Assembly (NCBI GenBank): GCA_034435015.1
Contig: DAOTYH010000052.1
Coordinates: 2,835-66,834, forward strand
Direction of reading: 5' to 3'
Source of the DNA: Anaerolineae bacterium
GTDB lineage: Bacteria; Chloroflexota; Anaerolineae; Aggregatilineales; UBA3940
DNA length: 64,000 nucleotides
Positions within the stretch are counted from its first letter, which is position 1, and each line of letters begins with the position of its first letter. Under the pieces are notes generated by a model. It searched no databases. It was not told where the DNA came from and saw only the letters and a program-made list of their open reading frames with translations. Below, piece after piece: positions 3,495-20,390 of this stretch. A program made the translations under genes and the position numbers.

Positions 3495-5012
3495 ATGGAC
3501 AGTAGTCCGTCTGCGCCGGAAGCGGCACTGCCTGAGGTCTCTGACTTACCGAACGACACCCTCTTTCAGATCGCGTCGGCCTCAACGCCCGATCAAATCC
3601 TGAATATTTTGCGCGGCTATGCCTCCCCAGATATTGACCGAATTTCCCTGACAGGGGCCAGCCTTGGGACTGCGACCGAGGCAGTTGCCGTGTGGGACCG
3701 AGACGGCATTGCGTTGGAAGATGGGTTGCCTGGGCCTATCCGCCAACTGATCGGAGCAAAGCCCCTGTTTATCACAAGCGACATTGACTTAGAGCAGTCT
3801 GCCGCGCTGTTCAGGGCCTATGTGGGCGGGACGTTACGGGCGAAGTCTCTGGCCGTTTTCCCGTTGAGCGGCCGGGAGCAGGTGGTCGGCTATCTGGAAC
3901 TTGCCAGCCGGCATCCCCGCTCTTACCCGGAACAGGAAGTTGAGCGCTGGAAGGCATTGGCGGCTTATGTGGGCGTGAACCTAGAGAAACTGCTGTTGCT
4001 TGATGCGCTGAGCCATCAGCTTGAGGAGGCTACTGTTCTGTACAGCACCTCGCTGGCGATGAATGCGGCCCAGAATCTGGAAGAAGTGTATGAGACGGCT
4101 CTCAATCAGGTTGCCTTTCTGAGTGAGGCCAGCCGGGTGTTGATCTATCTAGCCGGCCCCGACCCGCGCTCGGCGATTCAGTATGTGGAGCGAGCGGCGG
4201 TCTGGGAAAATGACCAGTTGGTGTATGTGCACCCCCCTGAGCGCTATGCCATAAGCGAGGTGCCCGTGCTTTCGCAATTTCCCATGTCGCGGGCCAATCT
4301 GGTTTTCAATGATCTTCAGGCTGACATGCGGCTGGAGGCTGGTCTGCGTTCCCGCTATGCCCAGCAAGGGATCAACGCCCTGGTGATGATCCCGCTGGCG
4401 ACCGGGTCGGCTTGGCTGGGTGCGCTTCTGCTCGAAGCCTCGCGCGGGCAGTTCTTCTCAAGCGAGCAGGTCAGGTTGTGCCGCAGTGTCGCGGATCAAG
4501 CGGCCCTGGCTGTTGACCTGCAAATGCTGTTGACACGTGCTCAGCAGACCGCCAAGCGGGAACGGGCTTTGCGCCAGATCATTGAGCATATCCGAAGCGC
4601 TGAGGATGTTGAGTCAATATTGCGCATTGCAGAGCAGGAACTGTCTGAGGCGCTGGGCAGGTCTCCAGATGAACTCGAGTCATTGCCGTGGCGTGATGAA
4701 AGTGTGTTGAGCGAGGGAGACTGGGACCTGGTTGAGGATGTAGGTAATCAGGTGGCGCTGGCAATTGAGAATCTCGAACTGCTTGAGAGCGCGCGACAGG
4801 ACGCCCTGCGGGGGCAGGTCGTCAGTGACCTGATGGCCAAGCTTCAGCGTGCAGTCAGTGTGGACGAAGTGATGGAGACAACGGCGCAAACTCTGCACAG
4901 CGTTCTCTCCGATTATAACATCTCGCTTCGCCTGTTGCCTCAGCGGCATGGATCAAGGGGAAAGGACGAGACCTCCCCGCCAGAGAACAGCTATGCCGGT
5001 GAGACGGAGTGA
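3495..5012 (+). CDS. cytosolic multi-GAF protein without output domain (first of six)
   Basis: No TM segment. Two GAF-like modules (..VVGYLELASRHPRSY.., ..ALVMIPLATGSAWLGALLLEASRGQFFS..), then a reduced module ending ALAIENLELLE and the C-terminal stub shared with the next five genes. ATG 3495 follows GGAGGA; the ORF track starts at 3471. Confidence 0.7.
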   Translation: MDSSPSAPEAALPEVSDLPNDTLFQIASASTPDQILNILRGYASPDIDRISLTGASLGTATEAVAVWDRDGIALEDGLPGPIRQLIGAKPLFITSDIDLEQSAALFRAYVGGTLRAKSLAVFPLSGREQVVGYLELASRHPRSYPEQEVERWKALAAYVGVNLEKLLLLDALSHQLEEATVLYSTSLAMNAAQNLEEVYETALNQVAFLSEASRVLIYLAGPDPRSAIQYVERAAVWENDQLVYVHPPERYAISEVPVLSQFPMSRANLVFNDLQADMRLEAGLRSRYAQQGINALVMIPLATGSAWLGALLLEASRGQFFSSEQVRLCRSVADQAALAVDLQMLLTRAQQTAKRERALRQIIEHIRSAEDVESILRIAEQELSEALGRSPDELESLPWRDESVLSEGDWDLVEDVGNQVALAIENLELLESARQDALRGQVVSDLMAKLQRAVSVDEVMETTAQTLHSVLSDYNISLRLLPQRHGSRGKDETSPPENSYAGETE

Positions 5013-5053
5013 ACGGGGTTGAAAGCAGGACCTCTGCAGATTGATCAAGGGTA

Positions 5054-6700
5054 ATGTCTATGAGTGCAAACCTCTCGTCGAAGCGAACCCTCTGGCAGTT
5101 TCTTACCGAGCCTCATTCTGCTGTCAGAAGAGAAGAAGAGCGGCAACGGGCGCGGGTGCTGGCCGTCGTCTCGCTGGTGCTGGTGCTGGTTGGCCTGCCT
5201 ATTGCTGTGATGGGGACGCTGAATGTAGGCAGTAGCGGATGGCCGATGTGGCTCGTTCTCGTTCTTTGGGCAGCCTCTTATCTGCTGAGCCGTTCATCCA
5301 GACCTCAGGTCGGGGCCGGCCTGCTTGTTTTCGGCTTGGCGGCGCTGGACCTTGGAGCGCTCGTAGCGATGGGCGACGCCGCCGGCGCGGCCCGGACCGT
5401 CATGTTCATGTTGATGCCGATCCTGCTCTCCCTGTTGTTGATGCCTGCCCGTGTCACAGTCGGGCTGGCGGTCGTGGTTGTGGCGGTTCTGCTGGGGATG
5501 TCATTTTTTATTCCATGGTTTTCCATTCGTCAGCTTGCTGTGCCGATGGTTGTGATCGTGCTGATCTCACTGCTGGCAAGCGCGGCGGCTGTCCTGCGTG
5601 ACCGTGATATAGAGACTATCCGCCGGCAGGCGGCTGACCTGAGCCAATACAGCCAGTCGCTTCAGGCCGAGGTTGATCAGCGCACGCGCAATATATTGGC
5701 CATCTCTGAGATCGGTCAGGCCATTACCGGCGCACGCGATCTGGAGGCCCTGCTGAAGCAGGTTGTCAACCTGATCACTGAGCGGTTTGGCTTCTACCAT
5801 GCACAGGTTTTCCTGATTGATGAGGAAGGGCGCTACGCTGTTTTGAAAGCCAGCACTGGTCAGGCTGGCCAGGAACTGCTGGCACGCGGCCACAAGCTGG
5901 AGGTCGGGTCGCGCTCTGTCATTGGGCAGGTCACCTCACGCGGTGAGGTGGTCATTGCCTCTGACACGGACACTGATCCAATCCATCGCCGCAATGAACT
6001 GTTGCCGCATACCCGCTCTGAGATAGCTCTTCCATTACAAGTTGGCGGACGGATCATCGGGGCGTTAGATATTCAGAGTGTGACCCCCAATGCCTTCACC
6101 GAGGCAGATGTACCGGCCTTCCGTACCATGGCTGATCAGTTGGCGATTGCTATTGAGAATGCCCGCCTGTTTGAGCGTGCTCAGCGCGACCTGCGGGATA
6201 TTGAGTTGTTGAACCGTCAGTTGACTGGCGAGGCATGGCGCAAGTATGTCAGCGGGCGTTCGGGTGCTGTCCCTGTTGGCTATGAGGCCAATGAACGGGG
6301 TGTTCATCCCATTCTTCCTGATGCGGCCGCGGTTGATGCGGCTGGAGGGGACGGTACGGTCAGCCTGCCGCTGACCGTACGCGGCGAGACCATAGGTGTC
6401 ATTGATCTAACACCGCGCTCCGGGGAGGAGCCGGATGAGGAGACTCGTACCATCCTTCAGGCTGTGGCTGAGCGTGTGGCGCTGGCACTGGACAGCACCC
6501 GCCTGAGCGAGCAGGCACGCAGTCAAGCCGAACGTGAACAGATTCTGAGCCGCCTCTCGGCAGAGCTTCAAGCGACTACTGATCTCAATATCATTCTAAA
6601 GACAGCGGCGCGGGAAGCCAGCCGGGCGCTGGGGACGCCCAGAGGATTTGTCCACTTGCAGGTTGAGTATGGGCCAAGGGAGCAGGAAGAGAAAACGTGA
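5054..6700 (+). CDS. polytopic-membrane (about 6 TM) GAF sensor protein without output domain
   Basis: N-terminal hydrophobic helices. A conserved GAF-A module (FGFYHAQVFLIDE..HRRNELLPHTRSE..IGALDIQS..IENARLFE). A linker LNRQLTGEAWRKY. A short second GAF-like module (LPLTVRGETIGVIDL..ALALDSTRL). A C-terminal stub. No kinase, cyclase, GGDEF or HTH motifs seen. Confidence 0.8.
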   Translation: MSMSANLSSKRTLWQFLTEPHSAVRREEERQRARVLAVVSLVLVLVGLPIAVMGTLNVGSSGWPMWLVLVLWAASYLLSRSSRPQVGAGLLVFGLAALDLGALVAMGDAAGAARTVMFMLMPILLSLLLMPARVTVGLAVVVVAVLLGMSFFIPWFSIRQLAVPMVVIVLISLLASAAAVLRDRDIETIRRQAADLSQYSQSLQAEVDQRTRNILAISEIGQAITGARDLEALLKQVVNLITERFGFYHAQVFLIDEEGRYAVLKASTGQAGQELLARGHKLEVGSRSVIGQVTSRGEVVIASDTDTDPIHRRNELLPHTRSEIALPLQVGGRIIGALDIQSVTPNAFTEADVPAFRTMADQLAIAIENARLFERAQRDLRDIELLNRQLTGEAWRKYVSGRSGAVPVGYEANERGVHPILPDAAAVDAAGGDGTVSLPLTVRGETIGVIDLTPRSGEEPDEETRTILQAVAERVALALDSTRLSEQARSQAEREQILSRLSAELQATTDLNIILKTAAREASRALGTPRGFVHLQVEYGPREQEEKT

Positions 6701-6753
6701 ACTAAAATAGAGACATGCATTCTACTTAGGGTAGAGCATGTTTTCCCACCTGT

Positions 6754-8592
6754 GTGGGGGTGTATTGTATGAATGATGAAAGCGTGAGCGTAACCCAATC
6801 ACAATGGCGGCGTGTCGTTGAGTGGCTGCTCTATACCCGCGTGCGTGATCCGGCGCTGGCCCGCCATAGCCGTCTAGCCGCCGCCATGCTGCTGGTCGGC
6901 GGAATCACGGCTCTGATAGGTCTGGGGCTGGGAATCGTGTTCTGGCTGAGCAGTTCCAGACTGCCCGCTTGGCGGCCCTACCTGATCGGCGCGGGTGTCT
7001 TCATGGTTCTGCTGGCAGTCATTTACCTGATCAACCGCCTTGTGAGTACGCCGCTGGCAGGCCTTTTGTTGGCTGTCCTGTTGCTGGCCGGCGACCTGCT
7101 CCTGCTGGTGGTTTCCGGGCCGGCCTCTCCGGTCTCTGTGGCCCTGATCGTGCCGGTCATTGTGGCCGGGCTGTTCAGCACGCCGGTTTCGGCAGTAGTG
7201 GTGGCCGCAGTGGCCGCAGTGGCCTATCTGCTCCTGAACCTGCGGGCTGACCCGGCTTACTTGACCCATCTTGTTCAGGGCGAAGCGGCTTTGCAGACCG
7301 GGTTGATGTACCTCAACCTGTTCTTTGTCTCTATCGTGTCATGGCAGTTTGCCCGCACGGCCCGTCAGGCCTTCAAAGAGAGCCAGCAGTTGAGCCTGGC
7401 TCTGGTCGAACAGCGTGAAGAACTGGAAGGACGGCTGGAGGCCCAGACCCGCCAGCTTCAGGCAACTGTTTCGGTAGCGCGGGCGGTAGCCGGCACACGC
7501 AATCTGGACAAACTTCTGGAAGATGTTGTCCGGCTGGTGCGCGAGACATTCGGTTACTACCATGTTCAGGTATTCATGGTAGATGAGGATCGTCAATATG
7601 CCGTCCTGCGCCAGAGTACCGGCGAGGTGGGGCAGAGACTGCTGGCAAGCGGACATCGGTTGCCGGTGGGTAGCCTGAGCGTGATCGGTCAGGTGACAGC
7701 CAGCGGGCGGGCGGTGGTGGCCCGCGATACAGACACCGACGCAGTACATCGGCGCAATGAATTGCTCCCCAATACCCGATCTGAGATGGCCGTCCCGCTT
7801 AGTGTGGGTGATCGGGTGATAGGTGCGCTGGATTTACAGAGTGTCGAGCCGGATGCCTTCCCTGAACAGGTCATCCCTACCTTGCAGGCCCTTGCCGACC
7901 AGATCGCTGTGGCTATTGAAAATGCCCGCCTGTTTGAGCAGGCTGAGCAGAACCTGCGTGAACTGCGGGAACTCAGCCATGAGGTCACTCAGCGCTCGTG
8001 GAGCGAGTTCTTGGCTGAGGCACGTGAGGAGGAAATACACCAATCTTACGGCCCAGAAACGAAGGCCATTGAGATATTCCGTAGCCGTGTGATTGAGCGG
8101 GTGTTGACATCTGGTACGGTGATTGTATCAACCGGTAAGGATGGGCGGCAGGCGTTTGTGGCCGCGCCCATCGTTGTGCGTAACGAAGTGATCGGCGTGC
8201 TGGGCGTAGAACCGGACGGGGTCCGGGAGTGGTCTCAGGATGACCTCCTGCTCATTCAGGGCATTGCTGATCGGACCGCCCTGGCTGTCGAAAATGCGCG
8301 GCTGTACCTGCAAGCACGGCGTGCCGCTGAACGCGAGCGTCTGGTCAGCTCCATTGCGGAGCGTCTCCAGCGTGCCCCCAGCCTTGCCCTCCTGCTGGAG
8401 AGTGCTACAAGGGAGCTGGCAGAGGCACTGGGCACGGAGAGTGTATACGCTGAGATCAACGTCGAACGCCCGCTCGCCCGTGCCCGTAAAGAGGTATCGG
8501 AAGAACCGGAAGTGGTGGAGGCCGAGTCGCGGCAATCGGCTGAGGATGCGGTTGCCCCGGACGAGCCTGAGGAGGCGAGAGCTGAATCATGA
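6754..8592 (+). CDS. polytopic-membrane GAF sensor protein without output domain
   Basis: Same architecture as 5054..6700. GAF-A reads FGYYHVQVFMVDE..HRRNELLPNTRSE..IGALDLQS..IENARLFE. The acidic C-terminal tail overlaps the next gene (ATGA). The true start may be ATG 6769. Confidence 0.8.
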   Translation: MGVYCMNDESVSVTQSQWRRVVEWLLYTRVRDPALARHSRLAAAMLLVGGITALIGLGLGIVFWLSSSRLPAWRPYLIGAGVFMVLLAVIYLINRLVSTPLAGLLLAVLLLAGDLLLLVVSGPASPVSVALIVPVIVAGLFSTPVSAVVVAAVAAVAYLLLNLRADPAYLTHLVQGEAALQTGLMYLNLFFVSIVSWQFARTARQAFKESQQLSLALVEQREELEGRLEAQTRQLQATVSVARAVAGTRNLDKLLEDVVRLVRETFGYYHVQVFMVDEDRQYAVLRQSTGEVGQRLLASGHRLPVGSLSVIGQVTASGRAVVARDTDTDAVHRRNELLPNTRSEMAVPLSVGDRVIGALDLQSVEPDAFPEQVIPTLQALADQIAVAIENARLFEQAEQNLRELRELSHEVTQRSWSEFLAEAREEEIHQSYGPETKAIEIFRSRVIERVLTSGTVIVSTGKDGRQAFVAAPIVVRNEVIGVLGVEPDGVREWSQDDLLLIQGIADRTALAVENARLYLQARRAAERERLVSSIAERLQRAPSLALLLESATRELAEALGTESVYAEINVERPLARARKEVSEEPEVVEAESRQSAEDAVAPDEPEEARAES

Positions 8593-10862
8593 CCACGCAA
8601 TCCAGACAACGAACACGTATTGATCTACGGGCGCTTCCCATTGCAGTGAAGCTGGCACTGACGCTGGGTCTTGTTCTGGCGCTCAGCGGTATCTTTACGG
8701 CTTGGCTGGTAGGGCGCTCATTGCGCGATGTTCAGACGCAGGTCTTTATGAGCGACCTCCAGTCTCTCAGCCGTGCTCAGGCTTTCCGGGTGGTAGATGC
8801 TCTCTCCCAAGAGATAACAGCCCTGAACCGCTTGGGGAATAATGTCAACCTGCGTGTGATTTTGGCACTGCGCCCTGTGGATGTGACCCCTTATCCCGGC
8901 ACGGCTGATCTGGGAAGCGACACGACGCTCAACGCCCTGATCAGCGGCTTCCGCGAGACGCACGGCGAGTTTCGCAGTGTAGCACTGGTGGACATCAGCG
9001 GTCAGTTGCTCGCGATTGACCCCTTGCCGCCGGCATTGGATCGTATCTCGACCGAGAACTGGACATGGTTTTACGAGGCTTATAACCGCGGGATGGGGGC
9101 GGCTTATATATCAGGTCCTCTGGATGACGGGTTAACCGGCCTGCGGGGTATCCATATTGCCGTGCCGATCTATAGCGGCACGGGCGATAATCGTCTGCTT
9201 GGTGTCCTGTACGGCATTTGGGATGCCAGCAATGTGCTGGGTGTTGCTCAGGCCGCCGGTCAGCGGGAGTCGTTGCTGGTCTCTCCAGAGGGTCTAATGC
9301 TGGCGGCGCCCGGCGATCTGATCGGCTCTCCCTTGCCTGCCGATCTAACGGCTCGGATAAATGCCTCTCCTTCTGGTGCTTTCCTGTACACTGACCCGGC
9401 TGGCAGGCGGTGGCTGTACGGGTATGTCAGCCTGAGTGAATTAGGGCTGGCGGAAGGGCCTGCCTCAAGCTTAGGCTGGGTGGCCATCACCCGCGAACCG
9501 TTCTCAGCAGTTGAGGCCACTGTAGCCGCCCTGCTGAACGCCTTGGCGCTGGCTACTCTGGCCAGCGGCGCCATGATTGTTCTGCTGACCCTGATCTTTA
9601 CCCGCATACTGCTCTCGCCACTGCGGCATCTGACACAGGCCGCCGTGCGGCTTCAGGCGGGCGAGCTGACTACTCCCGTCCCTGAGCTTCCTATGGATGA
9701 AGTGGGGCGTCTGGCGGACGTACTGCGCGGCTTGGTAGGGCGTCTGCTTTACCGGGTGGGTCAGCTTCGTGCCGCCGTGCAGGTTTCGCGTGTGACAGCC
9801 CAAACCCTCGACATCAACCAGTTGCTGGAAGGTGTTGCGCGGGCGCTGGCAGATCAGTTTGGCTACCCCCTCGTCCATATCTACCTGCTGGATGCTTCTG
9901 GTAAGAATGCCCGCCTCCATGCTGTAGCCGGTGATCGCGGCGGATACTGGTTGCGGGTCGGGCATCGCATCACGGTAGATGAGACCACGCCGGTAGGGCG
10001 GGCTATCCTGTTGCGTGAGACCCAGTTTAGTAGCGATCAGGAACTGCCGATCTGGCCCGGTGCGCCTGTCAAGCCGGCGCAACTGGCCCTCCCGTTGCAG
10101 GCCGGCGGACGCGCGCTGGGGGCCTTACATCTGATCACCAGGCCGATGACGGTGTTCGAACAGGAGGACATTGACCTGTTGCTCCTGATCGCCGACCAGC
10201 TCAGCGCGTCAGTTGAGAACGCGCGTCTGTTTGAGCAAAGCGCCGCTAACCTTGCTGAGATCGAGGCCCTGAACCGCCGCCTGACTCGTCAGGGGTGGGA
10301 AGAGTTTCTGGAGAGCAGGGGGGATGCTCTGCGCCATACGCTGGACCCCGATCAGCGCTGGCCTCAGACGCCTGAGGAAATCCGGCGGCGCAGTGAGGTA
10401 AAGGCGGTTGTCTATACAGATGCCGATGGGCGCTCGGTGTTGGCCGCCCCGCTGGTTCTGCGCGGCGAGACGGTCGGGACGCTGGCCGTGACCCGCCCTG
10501 CCGGGGAGGGCTGGTCGCGGGAAGAGGTGTCCCTGCTGGAATCCGTGGCGGCCCGTATGGCGATAGTAGCTGAGGGCATCCGTCTGGTCGAGGAGTCAAC
10601 ACGCCGCGCTGAGATTGAACAGCGTGTAAGCGAAGTCTCGGCTCAACTGCTCCAGCGTGCGGCCAGCGTGGATAGTGTCCTGCAAAATGCCTTGAGCCAG
10701 TTGAGCGGGGCGCTTGGCTCTGATCATGTGTCCCTGCGGATCGGCCCTCCGCCGGTTGAGGGCGATCATCAGATCTCGCCGCGCAGTACAGGCGGCACAG
10801 GCCCGGACGGCTTCGGCAAAGGCGGTGTTGAGGGGGATGGAGATTTGAGCAATGGCCGTTGA
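8589..10862 (+). CDS. TM-periplasmic Cache-like-TM-HAMP-GAF sensor protein without output domain
   Basis: Two TM helices flank a domain of about 290 aa (..LRGIHIAVPIYSG..LLGVLYGIWD..WLYGYVSL..). HAMP reads PLRHLTQAAVRLQAGELTT..EVGRLADVLRGL. A diverged GAF-A (FGYPLVHIYLLD..SVENARLFE), a second GAF-like module and the stub follow. The start overlaps the upstream stop (ATGA). Confidence 0.8.
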   Translation: MTTQSRQRTRIDLRALPIAVKLALTLGLVLALSGIFTAWLVGRSLRDVQTQVFMSDLQSLSRAQAFRVVDALSQEITALNRLGNNVNLRVILALRPVDVTPYPGTADLGSDTTLNALISGFRETHGEFRSVALVDISGQLLAIDPLPPALDRISTENWTWFYEAYNRGMGAAYISGPLDDGLTGLRGIHIAVPIYSGTGDNRLLGVLYGIWDASNVLGVAQAAGQRESLLVSPEGLMLAAPGDLIGSPLPADLTARINASPSGAFLYTDPAGRRWLYGYVSLSELGLAEGPASSLGWVAITREPFSAVEATVAALLNALALATLASGAMIVLLTLIFTRILLSPLRHLTQAAVRLQAGELTTPVPELPMDEVGRLADVLRGLVGRLLYRVGQLRAAVQVSRVTAQTLDINQLLEGVARALADQFGYPLVHIYLLDASGKNARLHAVAGDRGGYWLRVGHRITVDETTPVGRAILLRETQFSSDQELPIWPGAPVKPAQLALPLQAGGRALGALHLITRPMTVFEQEDIDLLLLIADQLSASVENARLFEQSAANLAEIEALNRRLTRQGWEEFLESRGDALRHTLDPDQRWPQTPEEIRRRSEVKAVVYTDADGRSVLAAPLVLRGETVGTLAVTRPAGEGWSREEVSLLESVAARMAIVAEGIRLVEESTRRAEIEQRVSEVSAQLLQRAASVDSVLQNALSQLSGALGSDHVSLRIGPPPVEGDHQISPRSTGGTGPDGFGKGGVEGDGDLSNGR

Positions 10863-12585
10863 TAGCCCGACTCAGGTTGAAAAGAAAGAAGGGGGTATCC
10901 GGCGCCTGTTCAGGTGGCTGTTCTCGGTGCACTACCCTTATGCAGACGTGTTGGAGCACCAGCGCGCTACGATAGCCGTAGTCATTACCGTGGTGCTGGC
11001 TGTGACAGGCCTGCTGGGGGGGATAGGCCTTAAGGTTATATTTGGCGGAGAGGCTTATTATACTGTCTCTGCCGGGCTTATACTGGCTGGTGTCTGTGCA
11101 TTGCTGTATCTCATGATACAGCGGGGGCGTCTCAGGGAGGCCAGCTATGGGCTGATACTTGCCCTGCTGACTCTCAGCTTTGTCCCGGAGTTGCCGGCTA
11201 CTATCCTTAAGCCGCTGTTCACGCCCTTTGTCCTTCCGGTGATGCTGGCCGCTTTTCTGCTTGGCACGTGGCCTGCCTTCATCACCGCGTTTGTCTCAGC
11301 GGTATTGATTGCTGTCGTCCTGTATGTGCATCTGCCCGGTTTTGCCACAGGCCTGCCCGCCGTACCGCCTGATCTGCTCTTTGAGGTTCTCTATCATCTG
11401 CTTACCTTACTGATGGTGTCGGCGCTGGCAGGCCAGATGGGCAACATCCTTAAGCGGTGGGCGCAATCGGCACAGCGCACAGCACGCCAGCTTGAGGCGG
11501 CGGCGGTCGTTAGTGAGACAGCCGCCACAGCGGCCAGCCTCAGCAAATTGCTGAATGTGGTGGTTGAACGTATCCGTGAAGCGTATGGCTTCTACCACGC
11601 TCAGGTCTTCCTGCTGGACCCGGAGCGGCGCATGGCCCGTCTTGAGGCCAGCACGGGCAAGGCCGGCGAGGTACTGCTGGCACGCGGTCACGCCCTGCCG
11701 GTGGGTTCGCAGTCAGTTGTAGGGCAGTGTACGTATCGGGGCGAGCCGGTGGTGGTCAACGACGTACTGCGCAGTACCATCCACCGCCGTAATGAGTTAT
11801 TGCCATTGACACGCGCCGAGCTGGCCCTGCCCCTGGTCGCAGGCGGGCGCGTGATCGGGGCGCTGGACGTGCAGAGTACGGTCCCCAATGCGTTCCAGCC
11901 GGACGATGTCCGCTCGATTCAGGCAATGGCCAATCAGCTTTCAACCGCCATTGAAAAGGCACGGCTGGTGGATGAGTTGCAGGCTCGTGCGGCAGAGAAC
12001 CAACGCCTCTACGAGGAGGCACAATCCAGCCTGCGTCAGTTTGAGGATTTGAGCCGCCGACTGACGCGCGAAGGCTGGAGTGATTACCTGCGCACCCGCC
12101 GCCTGCGTGGTTCGCTGGGATATACCCTCTCCGGTCAGCAAGTCCAGCACGACGCAGGATGGACTGCCCCCATGCGTCAGGCCTATCAGAGCGAGAGCAG
12201 TGTGGTGATCCGGCAGGGTCAGCAGGCCCATATTGCCGCCCTGCCCCTGCGCGTGCGCGGCGAGGTCATTGGTGTATTGGAGATCGAGCGGGGCGGCAAC
12301 CGTCCTTGGACGGACGATGAACTTGAGATGGCAGAAACATTAGTTGAGCGTCTTGCGCTGGCTGTTGAAAATGCCCGGCTCTATGAGCAGGCTACGCTCT
12401 CTGCCGAGCGTGAGCAATTGGTCAACCGCCTCACCCAGACCGTACAGCAGGCGGGGAGCATTGACGATGTTCTGCAGACCGCGCTGACAGAGCTTAGTTC
12501 GGTGCTGGGGGCTTCGCGCGGGGTAGTGCAGATCAGCCCGAAGGTGGAGCAGGCCTCCGGTGAACAGCCGGATAATGGCGCGTAG
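10852..12585 (+). CDS. polytopic-membrane GAF sensor protein without output domain
   Basis: About 6 TM helices, GAF-A (YGFYHAQVFLLDP..HRRNELLPLTRAE..IGALDVQS), linker LSRRLTREGWSDY, second module (LPLRVRGEVIGVLEI..ALAVENARLYEQ) and stub. The start overlaps the upstream gene by 11 nt. Confidence 0.8.
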   Translation: MAVDSPTQVEKKEGGIRRLFRWLFSVHYPYADVLEHQRATIAVVITVVLAVTGLLGGIGLKVIFGGEAYYTVSAGLILAGVCALLYLMIQRGRLREASYGLILALLTLSFVPELPATILKPLFTPFVLPVMLAAFLLGTWPAFITAFVSAVLIAVVLYVHLPGFATGLPAVPPDLLFEVLYHLLTLLMVSALAGQMGNILKRWAQSAQRTARQLEAAAVVSETAATAASLSKLLNVVVERIREAYGFYHAQVFLLDPERRMARLEASTGKAGEVLLARGHALPVGSQSVVGQCTYRGEPVVVNDVLRSTIHRRNELLPLTRAELALPLVAGGRVIGALDVQSTVPNAFQPDDVRSIQAMANQLSTAIEKARLVDELQARAAENQRLYEEAQSSLRQFEDLSRRLTREGWSDYLRTRRLRGSLGYTLSGQQVQHDAGWTAPMRQAYQSESSVVIRQGQQAHIAALPLRVRGEVIGVLEIERGGNRPWTDDELEMAETLVERLALAVENARLYEQATLSAEREQLVNRLTQTVQQAGSIDDVLQTALTELSSVLGASRGVVQISPKVEQASGEQPDNGA

Positions 12586-12597
12586 GGAGGGGCTGTT

Positions 12598-14793
12598 ATG
12601 CGGCGCTTCTTAAGCAGATTAGCTTGGAATAACCTGTCTATTCGGGTCAAGACAGGTTTGATGTTCTTGTTGCATATGTTCCTGATCAGCCTGATGGCTC
12701 TGGCGGCCTTCCTGTCTTTGCGTAATGTGAGCCAGCGGGTTGAGGGGGCTATTACCACGGCGGTTGAGATGCGCTCCCTGAGTCAGGATATGCAGCTTGA
12801 TACTCAGCGGCTTCAGAATCTAGTCTCCACTGTCCAGAGCAGTTTCGATACCCAGTTCTATACTCGTATGTCTGCGAACTGGCAGTCCAGTTATACGGAG
12901 CTGGCTCAGAGGATACTGGACAATGCCGCCCGCCTGGAAGATTTGAGCGATCAAGCTGTCAGCCCCTCTGACCGGATGGAGGTGCTCGCTGAGATTCGCG
13001 CCATCGAGGCCAATGTGACAGCCACCGAGCAGAGCTTCACGGCCATGCTGGACGCAGTGGCTCAACTCTCCACCCCGCGTGAGGGTGCCATCCCCTTGCT
13101 GGATGCCTACGGTGTTGCGCTGGAGGAAGTGACCATTGAGCAGGGCAACAACGACCTGCTTTCAAGATTTCTCCTTATGCGCAGTCTGGAGGAAACCTTG
13201 ATCGAGGCAGGCGATCAGACCGTCCTGGCCAGCTTCCGAGAGGCCGCCAATGCCTACCGGGAGGTGTACGACCGTATCCCCCTGACAGAGCGTCAGGCGG
13301 GCATTCCCACTGCCCTGAACAACTATGTGGCACAAGCCGAAGAGGTCGTCCGCCTTATAGGCCTCTTACGAAACAACCACGACGCCTCTCAGCTCTATCT
13401 GGGGTACGTTCGTGATGCGGCTTCCCGTCTGGGCACTATTACAAACGCCCAGTCCGCCTCTCAGCTTGCGGCTGTGCGGCAGATTCAGGGCGCGACTGTC
13501 TTCACCCTGTTGGCTGGCTTGATCATTACACTGGTCGTGGGCGGCACCTCCTCATATCTCTTTGGCCGCGCGATATTCAACAGCCTTAGCAACTTGCTTT
13601 ATGCCGCACAGTCACTGGAGAAGGGAAACCTCGACGCACGGGCTGAGGTAAACGGCGAAGACGAGTTCAACCGGCTGGCCGCCGCCTTCAATACGATGGC
13701 ACTTCAGCTTCAAGGGTTGATCAGCGGGTTGGAACAACGTGTCGCTGAACGTGCCCGCGACCTGAGCATCACGGCTGAGATTGGGCGGGCGGTAGTCGAG
13801 TTCACAGAGCCGCGCGAACTGATGAACAATGTGATTGAGCTGATCCGGCAGCGATTTGGCTTCTATCATGCGCAGGTCTTTTTGATTGATGACGCAGGAG
13901 AGAGAGCCAACCTTGTGGCCAGCACAGGGGCGGCAGGCCGGGCTTTGCTGGCCCGCCGGCACTACCTTGAAGTAGGATCGCGGTCGGTGATTGGTCAGGT
14001 GACGGCAACGGGTATGCCGGTGATCGCCTCTGATACCGATGTCAGCGCTATCCACAAGCGCAATGAGCTGTTGCCCGACACGCGCTCTGAGATGGCTCTG
14101 CCCATGCGTATTGGCGACAGAGTGATAGGCGCGCTGGATGTTCAGAGTGTGGCCCCTAATGCCTTTGATGAAAGCTCGGTGGCTGTCTTCCAGATCGTGG
14201 CTGACCAGCTCGCTATCGCGTTGGAGAGTGCCCGTCTTCATGCTCAGCTTTCTGATGCACTGGCTCAGCTTCGGGAGATCGAACGGCGTGCCACACTGGA
14301 AGCATGGCAGACCTTCCGCCAGTCCCGCAGCCCGAACGCTCCGCTTGGCTATCATCTGCGTGAGGGTGAGGTCATGCCCCAGCCTCCTGAGGCGATGCCC
14401 TCCCCCCTCAGTGAGGCTATTCGGACCGGGCGTGTCGTGAGCTGGCGGGATGGCGGTGAGGAGATCAATCTGGCTGTTCCCATTAAGGTACGAGGTGAGA
14501 CAGTTGGGGCCTTTGGCTTCGGAGGTGAGGCGCTGTACGATCTGACCGAGGAGGATATTGCACTGCTTGAAGCGGTAGCTGACCGTGTCGGGCTGGCGAT
14601 TGAGAACCTCCGTCTGGTAGAGCAGACCGCCCGTCGTGCCGAGCACGAGCAGATCGTGAACGAGATCACGGCCAAGATCGTAGGTTCAACCGATGTGAAC
14701 CAGATTTTGCAGACGACCGTAAGAGAGTTGGGCCGCGTGTTGCGTGCGCCCCAGACCAGCGTGCAACTGCGGAAAGAGTATGAGCAGAAATGA
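12598..14793 (+). CDS. TM-helical periplasmic domain-TM-HAMP-GAF sensor protein without output domain
   Basis: Two TM helices flank a predominantly helical domain of about 270 aa. HAMP reads LEKGNLDARAEVNGEDEFNRLAAAFNTMALQL. GAF-A reads FGFYHAQVFLIDD..HKRNELLPDTRSE..IGALDVQS. A second module and the stub follow. GGGAGG RBS before ATG 12598. Confidence 0.8.
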   Translation: MRRFLSRLAWNNLSIRVKTGLMFLLHMFLISLMALAAFLSLRNVSQRVEGAITTAVEMRSLSQDMQLDTQRLQNLVSTVQSSFDTQFYTRMSANWQSSYTELAQRILDNAARLEDLSDQAVSPSDRMEVLAEIRAIEANVTATEQSFTAMLDAVAQLSTPREGAIPLLDAYGVALEEVTIEQGNNDLLSRFLLMRSLEETLIEAGDQTVLASFREAANAYREVYDRIPLTERQAGIPTALNNYVAQAEEVVRLIGLLRNNHDASQLYLGYVRDAASRLGTITNAQSASQLAAVRQIQGATVFTLLAGLIITLVVGGTSSYLFGRAIFNSLSNLLYAAQSLEKGNLDARAEVNGEDEFNRLAAAFNTMALQLQGLISGLEQRVAERARDLSITAEIGRAVVEFTEPRELMNNVIELIRQRFGFYHAQVFLIDDAGERANLVASTGAAGRALLARRHYLEVGSRSVIGQVTATGMPVIASDTDVSAIHKRNELLPDTRSEMALPMRIGDRVIGALDVQSVAPNAFDESSVAVFQIVADQLAIALESARLHAQLSDALAQLREIERRATLEAWQTFRQSRSPNAPLGYHLREGEVMPQPPEAMPSPLSEAIRTGRVVSWRDGGEEINLAVPIKVRGETVGAFGFGGEALYDLTEEDIALLEAVADRVGLAIENLRLVEQTARRAEHEQIVNEITAKIVGSTDVNQILQTTVRELGRVLRAPQTSVQLRKEYEQK

Positions 14794-17700
14794 GTAGCAC
14801 AAAACCTTCTCAACCCAAGCGCAGGGCACGCAGCCTCCGGCGTACCCTGCAATTGATCTTCATTGCTCTGGTGGCTTTGCCGGTTCTGACGCTCACCGTC
14901 GTCTCAATGCTGAACTCGGTCAATAACAGCCGGCAGGCCGCTGTCAACCGTTTGAACACGCTTGCCGACATCCAGACCCAGGTGCTGGAGCAATGGGTCT
15001 CTGCCGCCCAGAACAACCTGAGCCAGAACCTCGCTAATCCGGTCATCGGCCCGATCATCGTCCGCTTGGTCACAACCCCTCCAGAGGAGATGACCACTGC
15101 CGCCTATGCCAGCAACCGTTTGATCTTCATTAACCATGCGCGCGTGGTGATCGGCGGGCCGGATTCGCCGTTCAGCCGTATTGTCCTGACGGATATGGAT
15201 GGTATCGTGCGCGGCGCCGACTTCCAGACCCTTCTGGGGCGCGACTGGAGCATGGAGCCGTGGTTCAATGCGGCCATACAGGCCGGTGATGCGGTTGCAT
15301 TGGTAGGCCCCTACCGCGACCCTGTAGACGGCAAGGACAGCCTGTATTTCTCAACCACAGTACGCACGTCTGAGGGTGTGGTAGTAGGCGTGTTGTGCGG
15401 CAGAGCGACGCTTGACCCCTTGAAGAGACTCATGGAACGAGTACCGCCGCTGGGTGAGACAGGGGAATACCTGCTGATCCGGCAGGGCCAGCAGTATGTC
15501 ACGCCGCCGCGCCATGACCCCGGCGCCCGGCTGGCAACTGATGAAATTGTCTCGACCGTCCTGAGTGGAAATAACGGTAGCGGCACTTGGCGCGATTATC
15601 GGGGAGAGGAAGTCATTGGGGCGTACCGTTGGGTTGCCCCGCTGAACATGGGCTTGATCGTCAAGCAGGACAGCGTCGAGGTACTAGGCGGCCTGTGGAG
15701 GCTGGTTAGCTCGTCGGCCATTATTGGTATGCTGTTTGTGGGGTTAGGCGCATTGCTTAGCTTTGTCTTCTCTGAGCGCCTGCTAGGCCCGCTGGAGGCC
15801 TTGAGCCGAGTAGCGATGCGTGTGTCCGCTGGCGACCTGAACCTGCGTGCGCCTGAAACGGATGCAACCGAGCTTAGGCGGCTGGCAGACTCGTTCAATG
15901 CGATGACCGCCCAGATCAGGTCTATGATCGAGAGCCGTGAGGAAACGATCCGAGAGAGGACCCGCGAGCTGGCTATTGTCGCCCAGATGGGCCGTGTGAT
16001 TGCCGCTGAAACGAACCTTGAGCGCCTGCTTGATCTGGCTATTGGCCTCATCCGCGACCGGCTGGGGTACTATCACGTTCAGATCTTCATGGTGGATGAC
16101 CTGAAGCAGAACGCGGTCCTGCGTGCCAGTACGGGCGAGGCCGGGCGTCAGTTGCTGGCTCTTGGTCACCGACTGCCGGTGGGGTCACGCTCGGTCGTTG
16201 GTCAGGCCGCTGGTCGGGGTGAGCCGGTGCTGGCATCGGATACCCGTTATGCGGACTATTGGCGGCCTAACCCCCTGTTGCCTGACACACGTGCCGAGCT
16301 GGCAATTCCCCTGCTCACGGGCGATCAGCTTATTGGGGTGCTTGACATCCAGTCTACCGAGCCGGAGACCTTCAGCGAAGACACGATTGCCGTGCTTCAG
16401 ACGCTGGCTGACCAGTTGGCGGTAGCTATCCGCAATGCGCAGTTGTTTGGGGAAAAGGAGAGCCTGCTGTCGGCCTCGCTTGACCTGACCCAGATGCTCA
16501 CCCGTGAGGGCTGGGGTGACTACGTGGCACAGCGCAGGGGCCAGAATGGCGCTATCGGCTTTGAGTATAACCTGAGCGAAGTACGTCCTCTGGATGGCTC
16601 CTCAGGAATATCGGGGCAGGGTATCAGCCTTCCCATTGCACTGCGTGGTGCGATCATCGGTCAGCTTGAAGCCCAGCTACCGGAAGGTGAGACTTGGACC
16701 GAGGAGGACAGACAGCTAGTCAGTCAGGTGCTCGACCGGGTGGCCCTGGCACTCGAAAACGCACGTCTGTTCGAGCAAACTCAGATTTCTCTGGCAGAGA
16801 CCAACCGCCTCTATCAGGCCAGCCAGCGGATCGCCGCCGCTGACACCGTCAAGGACCTGGTAGAGGAGTTGATTGACGTTGCCAAGATTGACATCGCCGA
16901 CCAAATCACCCTCTACCTGGTGGATGATCCGGCTGAGCCGCCCGGCGACCGGTGGGTTGAGGCGGCAGGGAGTTGGGTCCGTGACCCGCATAGCGCTTTG
17001 GGCCAAATGCCGTCCCGACTGCGCACCAGTCAGCCGCCCTTGAAGGGAATTGAGAGCATACCCCTTGACGGGCGGGTGATTGATGATCTGACTGCCGCTG
17101 AGGATATGGCTCCAGAAAGCCGTGCCCAGCTTCAGGAGCTGGGGGTCAGGTCTATGGCTGTCTTCCCGCTGGCGGCTGGCCGCCGCACGCTGGCCTGGCT
17201 GGTGATCTACAGCTCTGCTCAGGGTAGTGCTTTCACTGAGGGCGATGTCCGTTTCTTTGAGACGATCACCGACCAAGCGGCCTCAGCACTTGAAGGACTG
17301 CGTCTGTTCGAGCAGACTCAGATTCGTGCCCGCCGTTTGCAGGCCACCAATGAGGTCTCACGGGCGGCATCCTCGATCCTGAACCCCGACATCCTACTGC
17401 CGCTGATCGTAGATCGCATCAGCGAGGCGTTTGGATACTACCATGTCCAGATATTCCTGGTGGATGAGCTGGGCGAATGGGCTGTGCTACGGGCCAGCAC
17501 GGGTGAGGTCGGTCAGGAGCTGTTGCGTCGTAAACACGCATTGGCTGTCGGCTCGCGTTCGGTGATCGGGCAGGTGACGGCGCTGGGCGAAATCGTTATT
17601 GCCCGCGATACTGACGTGGACGCGGTCCACCGGCGCAACGAGTTACTGCCCAACACACGGGCTGAGATGGCAATCCCGCTCAAGACAGGCGACCGTGTCA

Positions 17701-20390
17701 TTGGGGCGCTGGATGTGCAAAGCACGCAGGTCAACGCCTTCGATGCAGAGGCTCAGGCCATCCTGCAATCACTGGCCGACCAGATTTCCGTGACTCTTGA
17801 GAATGCCCAGCTCTTCCAGGAAATCCAAGAGCGTGTGGCTGAGCTGACAACCGTTAACCTCGTTTCGCAGACAGTCTCTCGTGCTGAGACGTTGGACGAC
17901 CTGTATGAGGTCGTGACAACGCAACTGATGCGCACGTTCGGTGCTCAGTATGGCTTCTTGGGTGTGCTGGGCAAGGACAACCTGCTCCATTTCCCGATCT
18001 TCATTGAAGGAGGGGAGCGGCTCGAGTCCCCGCCGCCGCAGCCGCTGGGCGAGGGCCTCAGCGGCCACGTCATTCGTACCAAACAGGTGCTCCTGCTCAA
18101 TGAGAATCTCCCCCAAGAAGCTGAACGGCTGGGTGCGCGGATTATCGGCGAGATGCCTAAGAGCCTGCTGGCCGTCCCCTTGACCCTTGGGGATGAAGCT
18201 GTCGGCGTGCTGAGCATTCAGGATGCCGAGAAGGAACATGCCTACGGTGAGGCTCATATCCGCCAGTTGACCACGCTGGCCGCCTATATTGCCATCAAAA
18301 TCCGCAACGCCGAACTGCTTGAAGAGGCTCAGCGGCGGGCGGCTGAACTTGGCTTCCTGTTCAACCTGACACGGGCCGCCGTCTCCACTTCTGATCTGGA
18401 TGAGGCTCTCTCGCATGTGGCGGAGGTTCTGCACAGAGAGATCGAGGGGGCGGAAGCGGCAGTCATCTATCTGGCTAATGCTGAGGATAACTGCCTTGAC
18501 CCGCGTGCGGCAATCGGCTATGGACGTGACATTGCCCTTCGGCAGGGACGTATCGAGATGGGTGAAGGGCTGGTTGGTATGGTCGCTGTCCAGGGAAGGC
18601 CGCTGGTCATCGGCGATGCATGGCAGGAGGGGCCGGGCGGAAATGGTAGTGGCGGACGGACGCGATCAGCGGTGCTGGTTCCCCTCATGGTGGGCGATAT
18701 GCTGATCGGCGTCCTGACGGTTGAGAGCACACAGCCCAACGCCTTCGGCGAGAGCGAACTGCGTCTGCTGGAGGCGGCCTCTGGTACGCTGACGGCAGTG
18801 ATCCAGAATGACCGTCTGCTGGAGCAGATCACCCGTGCCAACGAGCAGTTGCGTGAGCTTGACAAGCTTAAATCCCAGTTCCTTGCCAACATGAGCCACG
18901 AGTTGCGCACACCCCTCAACTCGATCATCGGTTTCTCGCGTGTCATGCTGAAGGGGATAGACGGTCCGCTGAATGATCTTCAGGTTCAGGACCTCACTAC
19001 CATCCATCAGAGCGGCCAGCATCTGCTGGGGCTGATCAATGACATCCTTGACCTGTCCAAGATCGAGGCGGGCAAGATGGAGATTCAACCCGAATATATT
19101 GACTTGGTTGAGATCATTGAGGGTGTAATGTCCACCGCCAAGGGCCTGGTCAAAGATAAGCCCATCCAGCTCTTCAAGGAGGTCGAGGAGGGACTGCCTC
19201 AGGTCTATGGCGACCCGTTGCGCGTGCGGCAGGTACTGCTGAACTTGGTTTCTAATGCCGCCAAATTCACCAAAGAGGGGAGCATCACTGTTCGTGCCGT
19301 CCGCAAAGACTTCGATCCAGTCACGCTGGAGCCGCCGCGTGTTCAGGTTGATGTGGCCGATACCGGTATAGGGATCGCGCCGAAAGATATGGAGAAACTG
19401 TTTGTCGCCTTCCAGCAGGTGGACGGGTCAAGCACAAGGCAGGTCGGTGGAACAGGTCTTGGGCTGGCGATCTCTAAGCAGTTTATCGAGATGCATGGCG
19501 GGCGCATCTGGGTAGAGAGCCAGCTAGGGGTTGGCTCGACCTTCAGCTTCACCATACCGCTTCATCCTCCCAGCGTGCCGGTCGCTGAGCAGGAGCCTGT
19601 CGTTCTAAGGCCGGCTTCTAGTGAGGGACAGCCGGTTGTGCTGGCGGTAGACGACGAGCCGGGCGTGCTTGATCTGTATGCCCGTTATCTGGAAAAGGCA
19701 GGGTATGCCCTGATCGGGTTGAACAGCGCAAACGATCTCCTGCGGCATGTACGCGAGATGCACCCATCAGCTATCGTGATGGACCTGAACCTGCCGGGCA
19801 AGAGCGGCTGGGATGCTATCACCGATCTGCGCCGGTTCGATGATACCCGTAACGTGCCGGTCATCATTTGCAGTATCGAGGATGAGCGCCGGCGCGGCAG
19901 TCAGGTAGGGGTGGCTGACTATCTGGTCAAGCCGATCATCGAAGATGAGTTGCTGGAAGCCCTCAGCCGTGCGGTGAACGGCATGGTTTCGCCGCCTGCT
20001 ACGGGGCTGGATGTCTTGGATGTCCTGATCATTGACTCGGACGAACAGCATGCGCGTGCCGTTGAGGGCGTGCTTGTGCAGTCAGGCCGTTACGTGGTCC
20101 GCCGGGCCGCCATGGGCTTTGAGGGCTTGCAGGCTATTCAGGATCGTAAGCCGGACGTGGTTATCTTGGAGCTTGACTTGCCTGACATGGACGGCTATGG
20201 CCTGCTTGTCTCCATGCGTTCGCATGCCGATACACGTGATATTCCGGTCCTGATCATGACGGGGCGCGAGCTGACCAGCGATCAGCTTGGCCGCCTCGAC
20301 GGCAAGACAACGCGCTACCTGAGCAAGGCGATCTGTCAGGATGTGCGCTGGGCTGACCATCTGTCAGCGGCGCTTGAGAGTCTGCGTTAG
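14790..20390 (+). CDS. 1866-aa hybrid sensor histidine kinase (Cache-like, HAMP, six GAF-type modules, HisKA, HATPase, two receivers)
   Basis: TM, periplasmic domain, TM, then HAMP (..RLADSFNAMTAQI..). Two copies of the GAF-A module (LGYYHVQIFMVDD.. and FGYYHVQIFLVDE..HRRNELLPNTRAE..). H-box FLANMSHELRTPLNSI. ATP-lid DTGIGI and GGTGLGLAI. Receivers with IVMDLNLPGKSG and VILELDLPDMDG. The ATG overlaps the upstream stop (ATGA). Confidence 0.9.
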   Translation: MSSTKPSQPKRRARSLRRTLQLIFIALVALPVLTLTVVSMLNSVNNSRQAAVNRLNTLADIQTQVLEQWVSAAQNNLSQNLANPVIGPIIVRLVTTPPEEMTTAAYASNRLIFINHARVVIGGPDSPFSRIVLTDMDGIVRGADFQTLLGRDWSMEPWFNAAIQAGDAVALVGPYRDPVDGKDSLYFSTTVRTSEGVVVGVLCGRATLDPLKRLMERVPPLGETGEYLLIRQGQQYVTPPRHDPGARLATDEIVSTVLSGNNGSGTWRDYRGEEVIGAYRWVAPLNMGLIVKQDSVEVLGGLWRLVSSSAIIGMLFVGLGALLSFVFSERLLGPLEALSRVAMRVSAGDLNLRAPETDATELRRLADSFNAMTAQIRSMIESREETIRERTRELAIVAQMGRVIAAETNLERLLDLAIGLIRDRLGYYHVQIFMVDDLKQNAVLRASTGEAGRQLLALGHRLPVGSRSVVGQAAGRGEPVLASDTRYADYWRPNPLLPDTRAELAIPLLTGDQLIGVLDIQSTEPETFSEDTIAVLQTLADQLAVAIRNAQLFGEKESLLSASLDLTQMLTREGWGDYVAQRRGQNGAIGFEYNLSEVRPLDGSSGISGQGISLPIALRGAIIGQLEAQLPEGETWTEEDRQLVSQVLDRVALALENARLFEQTQISLAETNRLYQASQRIAAADTVKDLVEELIDVAKIDIADQITLYLVDDPAEPPGDRWVEAAGSWVRDPHSALGQMPSRLRTSQPPLKGIESIPLDGRVIDDLTAAEDMAPESRAQLQELGVRSMAVFPLAAGRRTLAWLVIYSSAQGSAFTEGDVRFFETITDQAASALEGLRLFEQTQIRARRLQATNEVSRAASSILNPDILLPLIVDRISEAFGYYHVQIFLVDELGEWAVLRASTGEVGQELLRRKHALAVGSRSVIGQVTALGEIVIARDTDVDAVHRRNELLPNTRAEMAIPLKTGDRVIGALDVQSTQVNAFDAEAQAILQSLADQISVTLENAQLFQEIQERVAELTTVNLVSQTVSRAETLDDLYEVVTTQLMRTFGAQYGFLGVLGKDNLLHFPIFIEGGERLESPPPQPLGEGLSGHVIRTKQVLLLNENLPQEAERLGARIIGEMPKSLLAVPLTLGDEAVGVLSIQDAEKEHAYGEAHIRQLTTLAAYIAIKIRNAELLEEAQRRAAELGFLFNLTRAAVSTSDLDEALSHVAEVLHREIEGAEAAVIYLANAEDNCLDPRAAIGYGRDIALRQGRIEMGEGLVGMVAVQGRPLVIGDAWQEGPGGNGSGGRTRSAVLVPLMVGDMLIGVLTVESTQPNAFGESELRLLEAASGTLTAVIQNDRLLEQITRANEQLRELDKLKSQFLANMSHELRTPLNSIIGFSRVMLKGIDGPLNDLQVQDLTTIHQSGQHLLGLINDILDLSKIEAGKMEIQPEYIDLVEIIEGVMSTAKGLVKDKPIQLFKEVEEGLPQVYGDPLRVRQVLLNLVSNAAKFTKEGSITVRAVRKDFDPVTLEPPRVQVDVADTGIGIAPKDMEKLFVAFQQVDGSSTRQVGGTGLGLAISKQFIEMHGGRIWVESQLGVGSTFSFTIPLHPPSVPVAEQEPVVLRPASSEGQPVVLAVDDEPGVLDLYARYLEKAGYALIGLNSANDLLRHVREMHPSAIVMDLNLPGKSGWDAITDLRRFDDTRNVPVIICSIEDERRRGSQVGVADYLVKPIIEDELLEALSRAVNGMVSPPATGLDVLDVLIIDSDEQHARAVEGVLVQSGRYVVRRAAMGFEGLQAIQDRKPDVVILELDLPDMDGYGLLVSMRSHADTRDIPVLIMTGRELTSDQLGRLDGKTTRYLSKAICQDVRWADHLSAALESLR

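Follow-up and report, generated by a model that had tools for sequence, protein, structure and literature searches.

GAF subfamilies without an assigned ligand are common in bacterial signalling. For the GAF domain of PtsP, responses to glutamine and 2-oxoglutarate have been reported. Free methionine-sulfoxide reductase (fRMsr) carries the motif H[IV]xCD, which holds the catalytic cysteine (Cys118 in Escherichia coli, Cys125 in yeast; bioRxiv 10.1101/2021.02.26.433065). These two proteins are the nearest solved relatives of GAF-A, a module of approximately 158 amino acids that occurs seven times in a sensor operon of an Anaerolineae bacterium (Chloroflexota; Aggregatilineales; UBA3940). The window referred to throughout is the whole stretch of 64,000 nt that was analysed (assembly GCA_034435015.1, contig DAOTYH010000052.1, positions 2,835 to 66,834 of the forward strand). 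By sequence, GAF-A is classed as an unnamed subfamily of Pfam GAF_2 that belongs to the fRMsr/PtsP branch and is expanded in Chloroflexota. Alignment of its conserved polar residues indicates that it probably keeps a small-molecule pocket.

Seven GAF-A copies in six consecutive genes

Exactly seven in-frame copies of GAF-A were located in six consecutive plus-strand genes (g2 to g7, positions 5054 to 20390), all of them alignable in the frame of long plus-strand open reading frames. A profile was built from the seven copies and all GAF-like stretches of the 64 kb were scored against it. The copies themselves yielded 183 to 264 bits (domain E values of 1e-55 to 1e-80), whereas every other GAF-like stretch reached 51 bits or less and no eighth copy was found in the window.

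5702-6175, plus strand: copy 1, g2 amino acids 217-374; 264 bits to the profile
5984-6022, plus strand: lid and start of strand beta5 of copy 1, H311-RRNELLPHTRS-E323; by alignment N314 corresponds to the catalytic Cys and E323 to Glu125 of fRMsr
7465-7941, plus strand: copy 2, g3 amino acids 238-396; 263 bits; 79% identity to its positional orthologue in the related locus L001
9774-10238, plus strand: copy 3, diverged, g4 amino acids 396-550; 183 bits
11500-11976, plus strand: copy 4, g5 amino acids 217-375; 244 bits
13768-14244, plus strand: copy 5, g6 amino acids 391-549; 254 bits; lid HKRNELLP
15975-16451, plus strand: copy 6, hybrid kinase g7 amino acids 396-554; 244 bits; lid WRPNPLLP
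17346-17822, plus strand: copy 7, hybrid kinase g7 amino acids 853-1011; 254 bits

In-frame translation and the profile envelopes place the seven modules where a preliminary description of this DNA had put them, except that the start it gave at 17345 sits 2 nt out of codon phase (envelope start, 17346). The copy that it singled out as diverged, at 9780-10236, is indeed so: at 183 bits, the dCache-linked copy 3 shares 25-33% identity with the other six. Pairwise protein identity among the six close copies ranged from 47 to 63% with a mean of 54%, lower than the "roughly two-thirds" estimated by eye, and the term "near-invariant" is too strong for the module. Strict retention of HRRNELLPxTR[SA]E had likewise been claimed. 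The lid motif HRRNELLP is exact in four of the seven copies (1, 2, 4 and 7), reads HKRNELLP in copy 5 and WRPNPLLP in copy 6, the latter being close to the family-wide FLPNPLLP, and is lost in copy 3. The observation that GAF-A is better conserved than its flanks was borne out, identity being 54% within the module but 22% in the N-terminal input regions, 33% across the linker and half-GAF and 27% in the tail. So too was the lack of a conserved cysteine, six copies being free of Cys and the single Cys of copy 4 not being conserved across paralogues.

Classification and nearest solved relatives

The module was called by Pfam as GAF_2 (PF13185), GAF (PF01590) or GAF_3. Scores against GAF_2 were 71-101 bits in the five small GAF-A proteins (cut-off 28.6), while g7 scored 277 bits over five stretches. 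Two independent AlphaFold2 (AF2) models were used, one of full-length g2 (m4f871f40dc99; predicted local distance difference test score, pLDDT, 84.7) and one of P0315, a small protein consisting of GAF-A and a tail (pLDDT 86.1). The GAF fold, a six-stranded antiparallel sheet with an N-terminal helix and a long C-terminal helix at its sides, was present in the models at a domain pLDDT of 93-97, with the element order a1-b1-b2-a2-b3-a3-b4-lid-b5-b6-a5. Foldseek searches of both models against solved structures matched many GAF domains with a probability of 1.00 and template modelling (TM) scores of 0.75-0.85. The fold match, together with Pfam matches above the gathering score, confirms the assignment of the module as a GAF domain.

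By sequence, fRMsr of Neisseria meningitidis (3mmh, E 2e-11) was the top PDB match, followed by the GAF domain of PtsP (3ci6, 3trc). fRMsr was also ranked first by Foldseek for both models (E 3.5e-9 and 2e-10; TM 0.77-0.80; root mean square deviation 2.0-2.2 Å; 24-26% identity), with PtsP second in one search and third and fourth in the other, behind the type II fRMsr 4mmn; further fRMsr structures and the cAMP-binding GAF of Lcd1 were also among the matches below the first rank. No named family scored above its NCBIfam cut-off, the only matches being far sub-threshold ones to NifA, MadS, a Tlr1612-family cyclic di-GMP phosphodiesterase and NorR. The literature searched on GAF domains in Anaerolineae and Chloroflexi, and on the ligand residues of the NifA GAF, yielded nothing on the GAF-A subtype. 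The preliminary description had allowed for a match to a characterised subfamily with a known ligand; none was found in NCBIfam or in the literature searched, and the nearest solved relatives are those at 24-26% identity.

A polar cluster aligned with the fRMsr active site

The conserved polar residues of GAF-A were mapped to fRMsr by aligning the module, with HMMER, to both 3mmh and E. coli msrC (MG1655). For E. coli MsrC, addition of 18 to the numbering of the current 165-amino-acid annotation gives the numbering of the literature. The fRMsr residues that align with the GAF-A polar positions are those listed as catalytic or substrate-binding (bioRxiv 10.1101/2021.02.26.433065, a secondary source for the contact residues). 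The correspondences, GAF-A position first, are as follows.

H34: Trp62
F38: Tyr66
G64/H65: Cys84
I/V75: Cys94
H96: His115
N99: catalytic Cys118
E108: Glu125
D124: Asp141
Q126: Asp143

Relative to fRMsr, Asn therefore stands in place of the catalytic Cys, His in place of Trp and Phe in place of Tyr, while the Glu is kept and Asp-x-Asp has become Asp-x-Gln. Only two of the five strictly conserved substrate-binding residues of fRMsr (Trp62, Tyr66, Glu125, Asp141 and Asp143) are retained, as E108 and D124. All three catalytic and resolving cysteines are gone. The residue aligned with the catalytic Cys of fRMsr (COG1956) is Asn in six copies, within the GAF-A motif H-R-R-N-E, and Gln in copy 3; Cys84 and Cys94 are replaced at G64/H65 and I/V75.

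The proposed site of copy 1 comprises the invariant polar residues H249, Q251, H280, S286, S288, N314, T320, R321, E323, D339 and Q341, together with the aromatic F253, also invariant (g2 numbering). In the AF2 model of g2 the site positions fall in beta1 (249-255), beta5 (322-330), beta6 (333-342), the start of alpha3 and the lid (304-321). This mapping combines the alignment and the DSSP string with the assumption that strand order and residue alternation follow the usual GAF topology. On that topology, beta1, beta5 and beta6 would be adjacent, with alternate residues facing one side. Within the domain, pLDDT is lowest in the beta4-beta5 lid (71-73 in loop 301-320, compared with 93-97 in the core).

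Conservation was tallied over six orthogroups, the small seventh, that of copy 7, being left out. The polar cluster was invariant in five of the six and almost no paralogue-specific positions were seen. In copy 3, encoded by g4, the cluster is disrupted by H34L, N99Q, T105K, R106P, E108Q, D124H and Q126I and by deletion of S71 and S73, and the orthologues of g4 likewise show weaker conservation at the same polar positions. The fold residues F30, D41, G54, G57, P112, G121, F133, Q147 and N154 are all kept. Since the polar residues were lost together and the fold residues were not, the cluster is needed neither for the fold nor for the helices. An abandoned ligand or cofactor site would be expected to show this pattern. 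Joint loss in g4 and alignment with the fRMsr site, taken together, favour a shared, non-catalytic ligand site.

The end of the conserved signature (F133, A145, Q147, N154 and L157; xxF, ADQ and ENARLFE) lies in alpha5. In the AF2 model this helix runs on from 350 to 401, as a connector of approximately 50 residues, into the next module. Judged from the model, the ENARLFE end is a signature of the connector or dimer helix and not of the pocket. The putative pocket signature of the preliminary description is thus best divided: the polar residues, which align with the fRMsr site and were lost jointly in g4, would belong to the pocket and the end of the signature to the alpha5 connector.

Breadth of the family

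GAF-A domain scores in 81 related loci were bimodal, most being either 200-250 bits or below 60 bits, which marks GAF-A as a discrete subtype. The profile matched 14,610 clusters (50% identity) at E <= 1e-30, a count obtained by scoring whole proteins and inflated by those with multiple GAF domains. The top matches were proteins of 1,200-3,800 amino acids with up to 20 matched stretches, and among the matches listed all named homologues are from Chloroflexota. Giant Chloroflexota proteins (P0121, P0123, P0125 and others) carry up to nine consecutive GAF-A domains at a period of 170 amino acids with gaps of 12 residues, and in other giants a period of 297 amino acids corresponds to GAF-A plus a spacer of approximately 140. 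The polar cluster is kept in nearly every one of the giant-protein copies. Small Chloroflexota proteins of 220-250 amino acids, made up of GAF-A and a tail, are also present.

Conservation in the wider family was counted over 506 domains from 150 giant proteins. The consensus of these domains begins F-x-L-Y-H-A-H-I-Y-L-L-D ... G-x-x-G ... G-H ... S-L-V ... N-D-V, continues F-L-P-N-P-L-L-P-D-T-R-S-E-x-A-x-P ... I-G-V-L-D-V-Q-S and ends F ... A-D-Q-I-A-V-A-I-Q-N-A-R-L-F. Conservation at key positions was 97% for E108, 95% for T105, 93% for Q126, 85% for D124 and 83% for N99. The Arg-Arg and Glu of HRRNELLP represent a lineage variant present in approximately 2% of the giant-protein domains (8 of 506), FLPNPLLP being the form of the wider family.

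Age of the operon and of the duplications

The whole array recurs in three other Anaerolineae lineages (loci L001, L081 and L082), with identity of g2 down to 42%. In the orthologous loci two response regulators come first, then a soluble multi-GAF protein, then five kinase-less GAF proteins whose order and sizes are fixed (approximately 540, 612, 745 (dCache), 577 and 730 amino acids), and lastly a hybrid kinase. The kinase is approximately 1860 amino acids in length in L081 and L082 and is divided into two separate genes in L001. Full-length orthologues of g2 are widespread in Anaerolineae. Each copy in the window is nearest to its positional orthologue, at 56-79% identity compared with 44-66% to its paralogues. 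DNA identity between copies is 60-74% in the best-conserved stretches, a low value which indicates that the similarity has been kept at the protein level. These two observations indicate that the duplications are old and that the copies have been maintained by purifying selection without gene conversion. The operon as a whole is old and conserved in Anaerolineae.

The similarity of the seven copies is therefore almost certainly not a product of recent duplication or gene conversion, that is, of concerted evolution in place of a selected functional site. It is true that the genes form a tandem row on a single strand and that short repeats can be detected at the DNA level between copies. Against such an origin stand the DNA identity, low even in the best stretches, the fact that no copy is as similar to a paralogue as it is to its positional counterpart in a different genome, and a gene order shared with three distant relatives. 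Both processes were rejected from the matrix of orthologue and paralogue identities and the low DNA identity.

Possible roles of the conserved site

The reading preferred here, to which about an even chance is given, is that GAF-A is a non-catalytic sensor GAF whose polar residues form one lidded site for a small polar ligand common to the paralogues, with occupancy relayed through alpha5. The polar residues would constitute a single site inherited from fRMsr, its chemistry gone, and the same small polar cytoplasmic ligand would be bound in all paralogues. The Glu and Asp of fRMsr that are kept in GAF-A presumably hold the amino group of the substrate, and for this reason the best guess for the ligand is a metabolite that carries an amine, for instance a free amino acid. 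Binding would order the HRRNELLP lid and shift helix alpha5 (ADQLAIAIENARLFE). The shift would pass along the helix of approximately 50 residues into the next module and, in the hybrid kinase, would reach HisKA. The five paralogues without an output domain would most likely act by pairing, either with the kinase or among themselves, by way of the alpha1 and alpha5 helices, which are as well conserved. One phosphorelay would then receive several membrane inputs together with one cytoplasmic cue.

Several points weigh against this reading. That the output-less proteins pair with the kinase is inferred purely from synteny and shared modules. Three fRMsr contact residues are changed, identity to fRMsr is only approximately 25%, and the fRMsr ligand is not transferable. 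Conservation of H65 and H96 does not extend to the wider family. Giant proteins carry as many as nine consecutive intact GAF-A domains; so many copies would be surprising if the domain served to sense a single ligand, and they are explained at least as well by a structural or cofactor role.

Such a structural role is possible, though on balance unlikely. GAF-A would then bind nothing and act as a spacer for dimerisation or signal transmission, with an internal network of hydrogen bonds and salt bridges among R106, E108, D124, Q126 and N99 filling the old active site and stabilising the lid, and conservation between paralogues arising from stacking or pairing. The nine-fold arrays with their 12-residue gaps are in keeping with this, as are the very strong conservation of alpha1 and alpha5, with Ala-rich faces and Q147 and N154 seven residues apart, the lack of an output domain in five of the six GAF-A proteins, and the presence on adjacent strands of an Arg and two acids that could pair mutually. 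However, the g4 copy lost the polar cluster while keeping the fold and helix residues, so the cluster is required for neither, and it coincides with the proven ligand site of the nearest solved homologue. An improbable alternative is that His, Glu, Asp, Gln and Asn hold a metal ion or constitutive cofactor, making GAF-A a redox, gas or metal sensor comparable to NorR, whose GAF domain is of the non-haem-iron type. H34 and H/Q36 on beta1, E108 on beta5 and D124 on beta6 would form a patch rich in His and carboxylates, an identical site in many tandem copies resembles cofactor-binding GAF arrays, and in NCBIfam the C-terminal part matches NorR weakly. That match nevertheless spans only beta5 to alpha5 and lies far below the family cut-off; the candidate ligand residues other than E108 are 68-85% conserved in the family, H34 is often Tyr, and no Cys is available. 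Retention of enzyme activity, as a free methionine-sulfoxide reductase or another catalyst acting through the His/Asn/Glu/Asp site, is very unlikely. Although fRMsr is the top match in both sequence and fold, and the homologue P0104 is annotated as a "putative methionine-R-sulfoxide reductase with GAF domain", Cys118 has become Asn, the resolving cysteines have become Gly/His and Ile/Val, only one of the seven copies contains any Cys, and the domain forms part of larger sensor proteins with several domains. Catalytic fRMsr function was rejected on the absence of the required Cys from the alignment.

A more far-reaching version of the sensor reading must be regarded as doubtful. It would hold that the dead fRMsr site has become a receptor for a free amino acid or amine metabolite that is new as a GAF ligand, and that g2 to g6 and the kinase assemble, by means of GAF-A and the connector helices, into a heteromeric multi-input sensor of Chloroflexota-wide occurrence, of which the giant proteins would be single-chain versions.

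Genes of the array and their neighbourhood

The GAF-A genes belong to a single plus-strand run of seven GAF genes, g1 to g7, at 3471-20390. The genes of the array and those adjacent to it are as follows.

60-1292, minus strand: ATP sulfurylase (PUA_2 + ATP-sulfurylase), upstream of the operon; same neighbour in L001 and L082
2186-2611 and 2707-3255, plus strand: two single-domain response regulators at the head of the operon; same pair in orthologous loci
3471-5012, plus strand: g1, the operon's first GAF gene; soluble protein with two GAF domains of generic, non-A type
5054-6700, plus strand: g2, multi-pass membrane N-terminus, long helix, GAF-A, connector helix, half-GAF, tail; GAF the only Pfam domain
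6754-8592, plus strand: g3, architecture as g2
8589-10862, plus strand: g4, dCache_1, HAMP, diverged GAF-A, half-GAF, tail
10852-12585, plus strand: g5, membrane N-terminus, GAF-A, half-GAF, tail
12598-14793, plus strand: g6, membrane/helical N-terminus, HAMP, GAF-A, half-GAF, tail
14790-20390, plus strand: g7, hybrid histidine kinase with dCache_1, HAMP, GAF-A, half-GAF, GAF, GAF-A, GAF, GAF, HisKA, HATPase_c, REC, REC
20511-22178, plus strand: threonine-synthase-like pyridoxal phosphate (PLP) enzyme fused to a C-terminal REC, directly downstream of g7

Start and stop codons overlap at three junctions, g3/g4 (8589-8592, 4 nt), g4/g5 (10852-10862, 11 nt) and g6/g7 (14790-14793, 4 nt), which suggests that the array genes are translationally coupled. 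In g2 to g6, and for the first copy in g7, GAF-A is the first cytoplasmic module and directly follows HAMP or a long helix exiting the membrane. No output domain was found by Pfam in g2 to g6, leaving g7 as the sole GAF-A protein that has one. The polar cluster was lost in no paralogue other than g4, and the signal of g4 may come solely from its periplasmic dCache domain. The protein encoded at 20511-22178 scored 213 bits for PALP, 248 bits for the NCBIfam threonine synthase PRK08197 (cut-off 303) and 68 bits for REC; such a fusion may serve the phosphorelay as an enzymatic output.

Downstream of GAF-A (6176-6511 in g2, with equivalents in g3 to g7) lies a long helix with the motif L-T-x-E-G-W-x-x-Y/F-L, followed by a degenerate half-GAF. 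In the window copies only b5-b6 and a5 of the GAF-A profile are matched by the half-GAF (positions 104-160, 15-27 bits), and it appears in the AF2 model as four strands and one helix at a pLDDT of 50-80. Each of the output-less proteins ends in a conserved tail of approximately 45 amino acids, E-R/H-E-x-L/I-V ... L-Q ... I-L ... E-L ... A-L-G ... V-x-L, at the following positions.

6527-6664: tail of g2
approximately 8310-8450: tail of g3
approximately 10600-10740: tail of g4
approximately 12400-12530: tail of g5
approximately 14640-14780: tail of g6

The tail residues F532 and L535 are invariant across 65 orthologues of g2, and the same tail closes many of the small Chloroflexota proteins consisting of GAF-A and a tail. 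The tail looks like a truncated GAF made up of helix alpha1 and strand beta1. Its last strand-like segment is disordered in the AF2 monomer models (pLDDT below 50-60 in P0315), and the tail may dock in trans.

Comparison with known systems

Among described systems, fRMsr (MsrC/YebR; 3mmh, 1vhm, 3ksf, 1f5m, 4mmn) is the best match by fold (TM 0.77-0.83) and has the same layout of strands and lid as GAF-A. Equivalents of its Glu125, Asp141 and His115 are kept (E108, D124 and H96), there is an aromatic residue at the position of Tyr66, and the motifs xSE-x-x-xPL and IGxLDxxS are common to both. It differs in being a stand-alone enzyme, whereas GAF-A is a module of membrane sensors and a hybrid kinase and has an extended alpha5 connector.

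The GAF domain of PtsP (EI-Ntr; 3ci6, 3trc), second-best match by sequence and among the top four by fold (E 2e-9, TM 0.80-0.85), shares the lid pattern H-x-R-x-x-x-L-P-x-T-x-x-E (HERFAYLPETGEE in PtsP, HRRNELLPxTRSE in GAF-A). Q126 of GAF-A corresponds to the Gln of LVVQN in PtsP, and the PtsP domain, like GAF-A on the preferred reading, is a GAF of the regulatory, non-catalytic type; it stands at the head of a signalling protein. In PtsP, however, Val and Phe occupy the positions of D124 and N99, five residues are inserted before beta5, and a single GAF copy is combined with domains of a phosphoenolpyruvate (PEP)-utilising enzyme. Pfam found no PEP-utilising domain in any gene of the array, and the likeness is confined to the GAF domain.

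Cyanobacteriochromes and phytochromes with tandem GAF domains offer a parallel for the giant proteins with up to nine consecutive GAF-A domains, since they too carry, within one sensor kinase, many GAFs of one subtype on continuous helices with the same pocket in each. They differ in that GAF-A lacks a chromophore Cys and a CH motif and its pocket residues are polar rather than of the bilin type; phytochrome matches in Foldseek were weaker and driven by the helices. With neither a chromophore Cys nor a CH dipeptide in any copy, a bilin-binding function, already held to be unlikely in the preliminary description, was rejected. GAF domains that bind cyclic nucleotide monophosphates (PDE2/5/6/10, CyaB, Lcd1 5w10) have the fold in common, Lcd1 ranking fifth to tenth by Foldseek, but their sequence matches were marginal (E 0.003). 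None of the seven copies contains the NKFDE motif, an NK dipeptide or an NK...F...DE pattern, and this function was likewise rejected. Only the part from beta5 to alpha5 aligns with the haem-binding GAF-A of DosS/DosT (E 0.005), a group marked by a proximal His ligand and a hydrophobic haem pocket, and the polar nature of the conserved residues argues against membership of that group. No chain of the nitrate-binding NreA appeared among PDB sequence matches at E <= 0.01 or the top 50 Foldseek matches.

If the site does bind a metabolite, assignment of one ligand would annotate thousands of Chloroflexota sensor proteins. The operon, with five output-less sensors ahead of one hybrid kinase, presents a tractable case for how kinase-less sensors feed a phosphorelay. 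GAF-A adds an uncharacterised subfamily to a very well-known class of domains and represents an ordinary type of bacterial sensor; an operon of seven GAF genes that includes five kinase-less sensors is more unusual than GAF-A itself.

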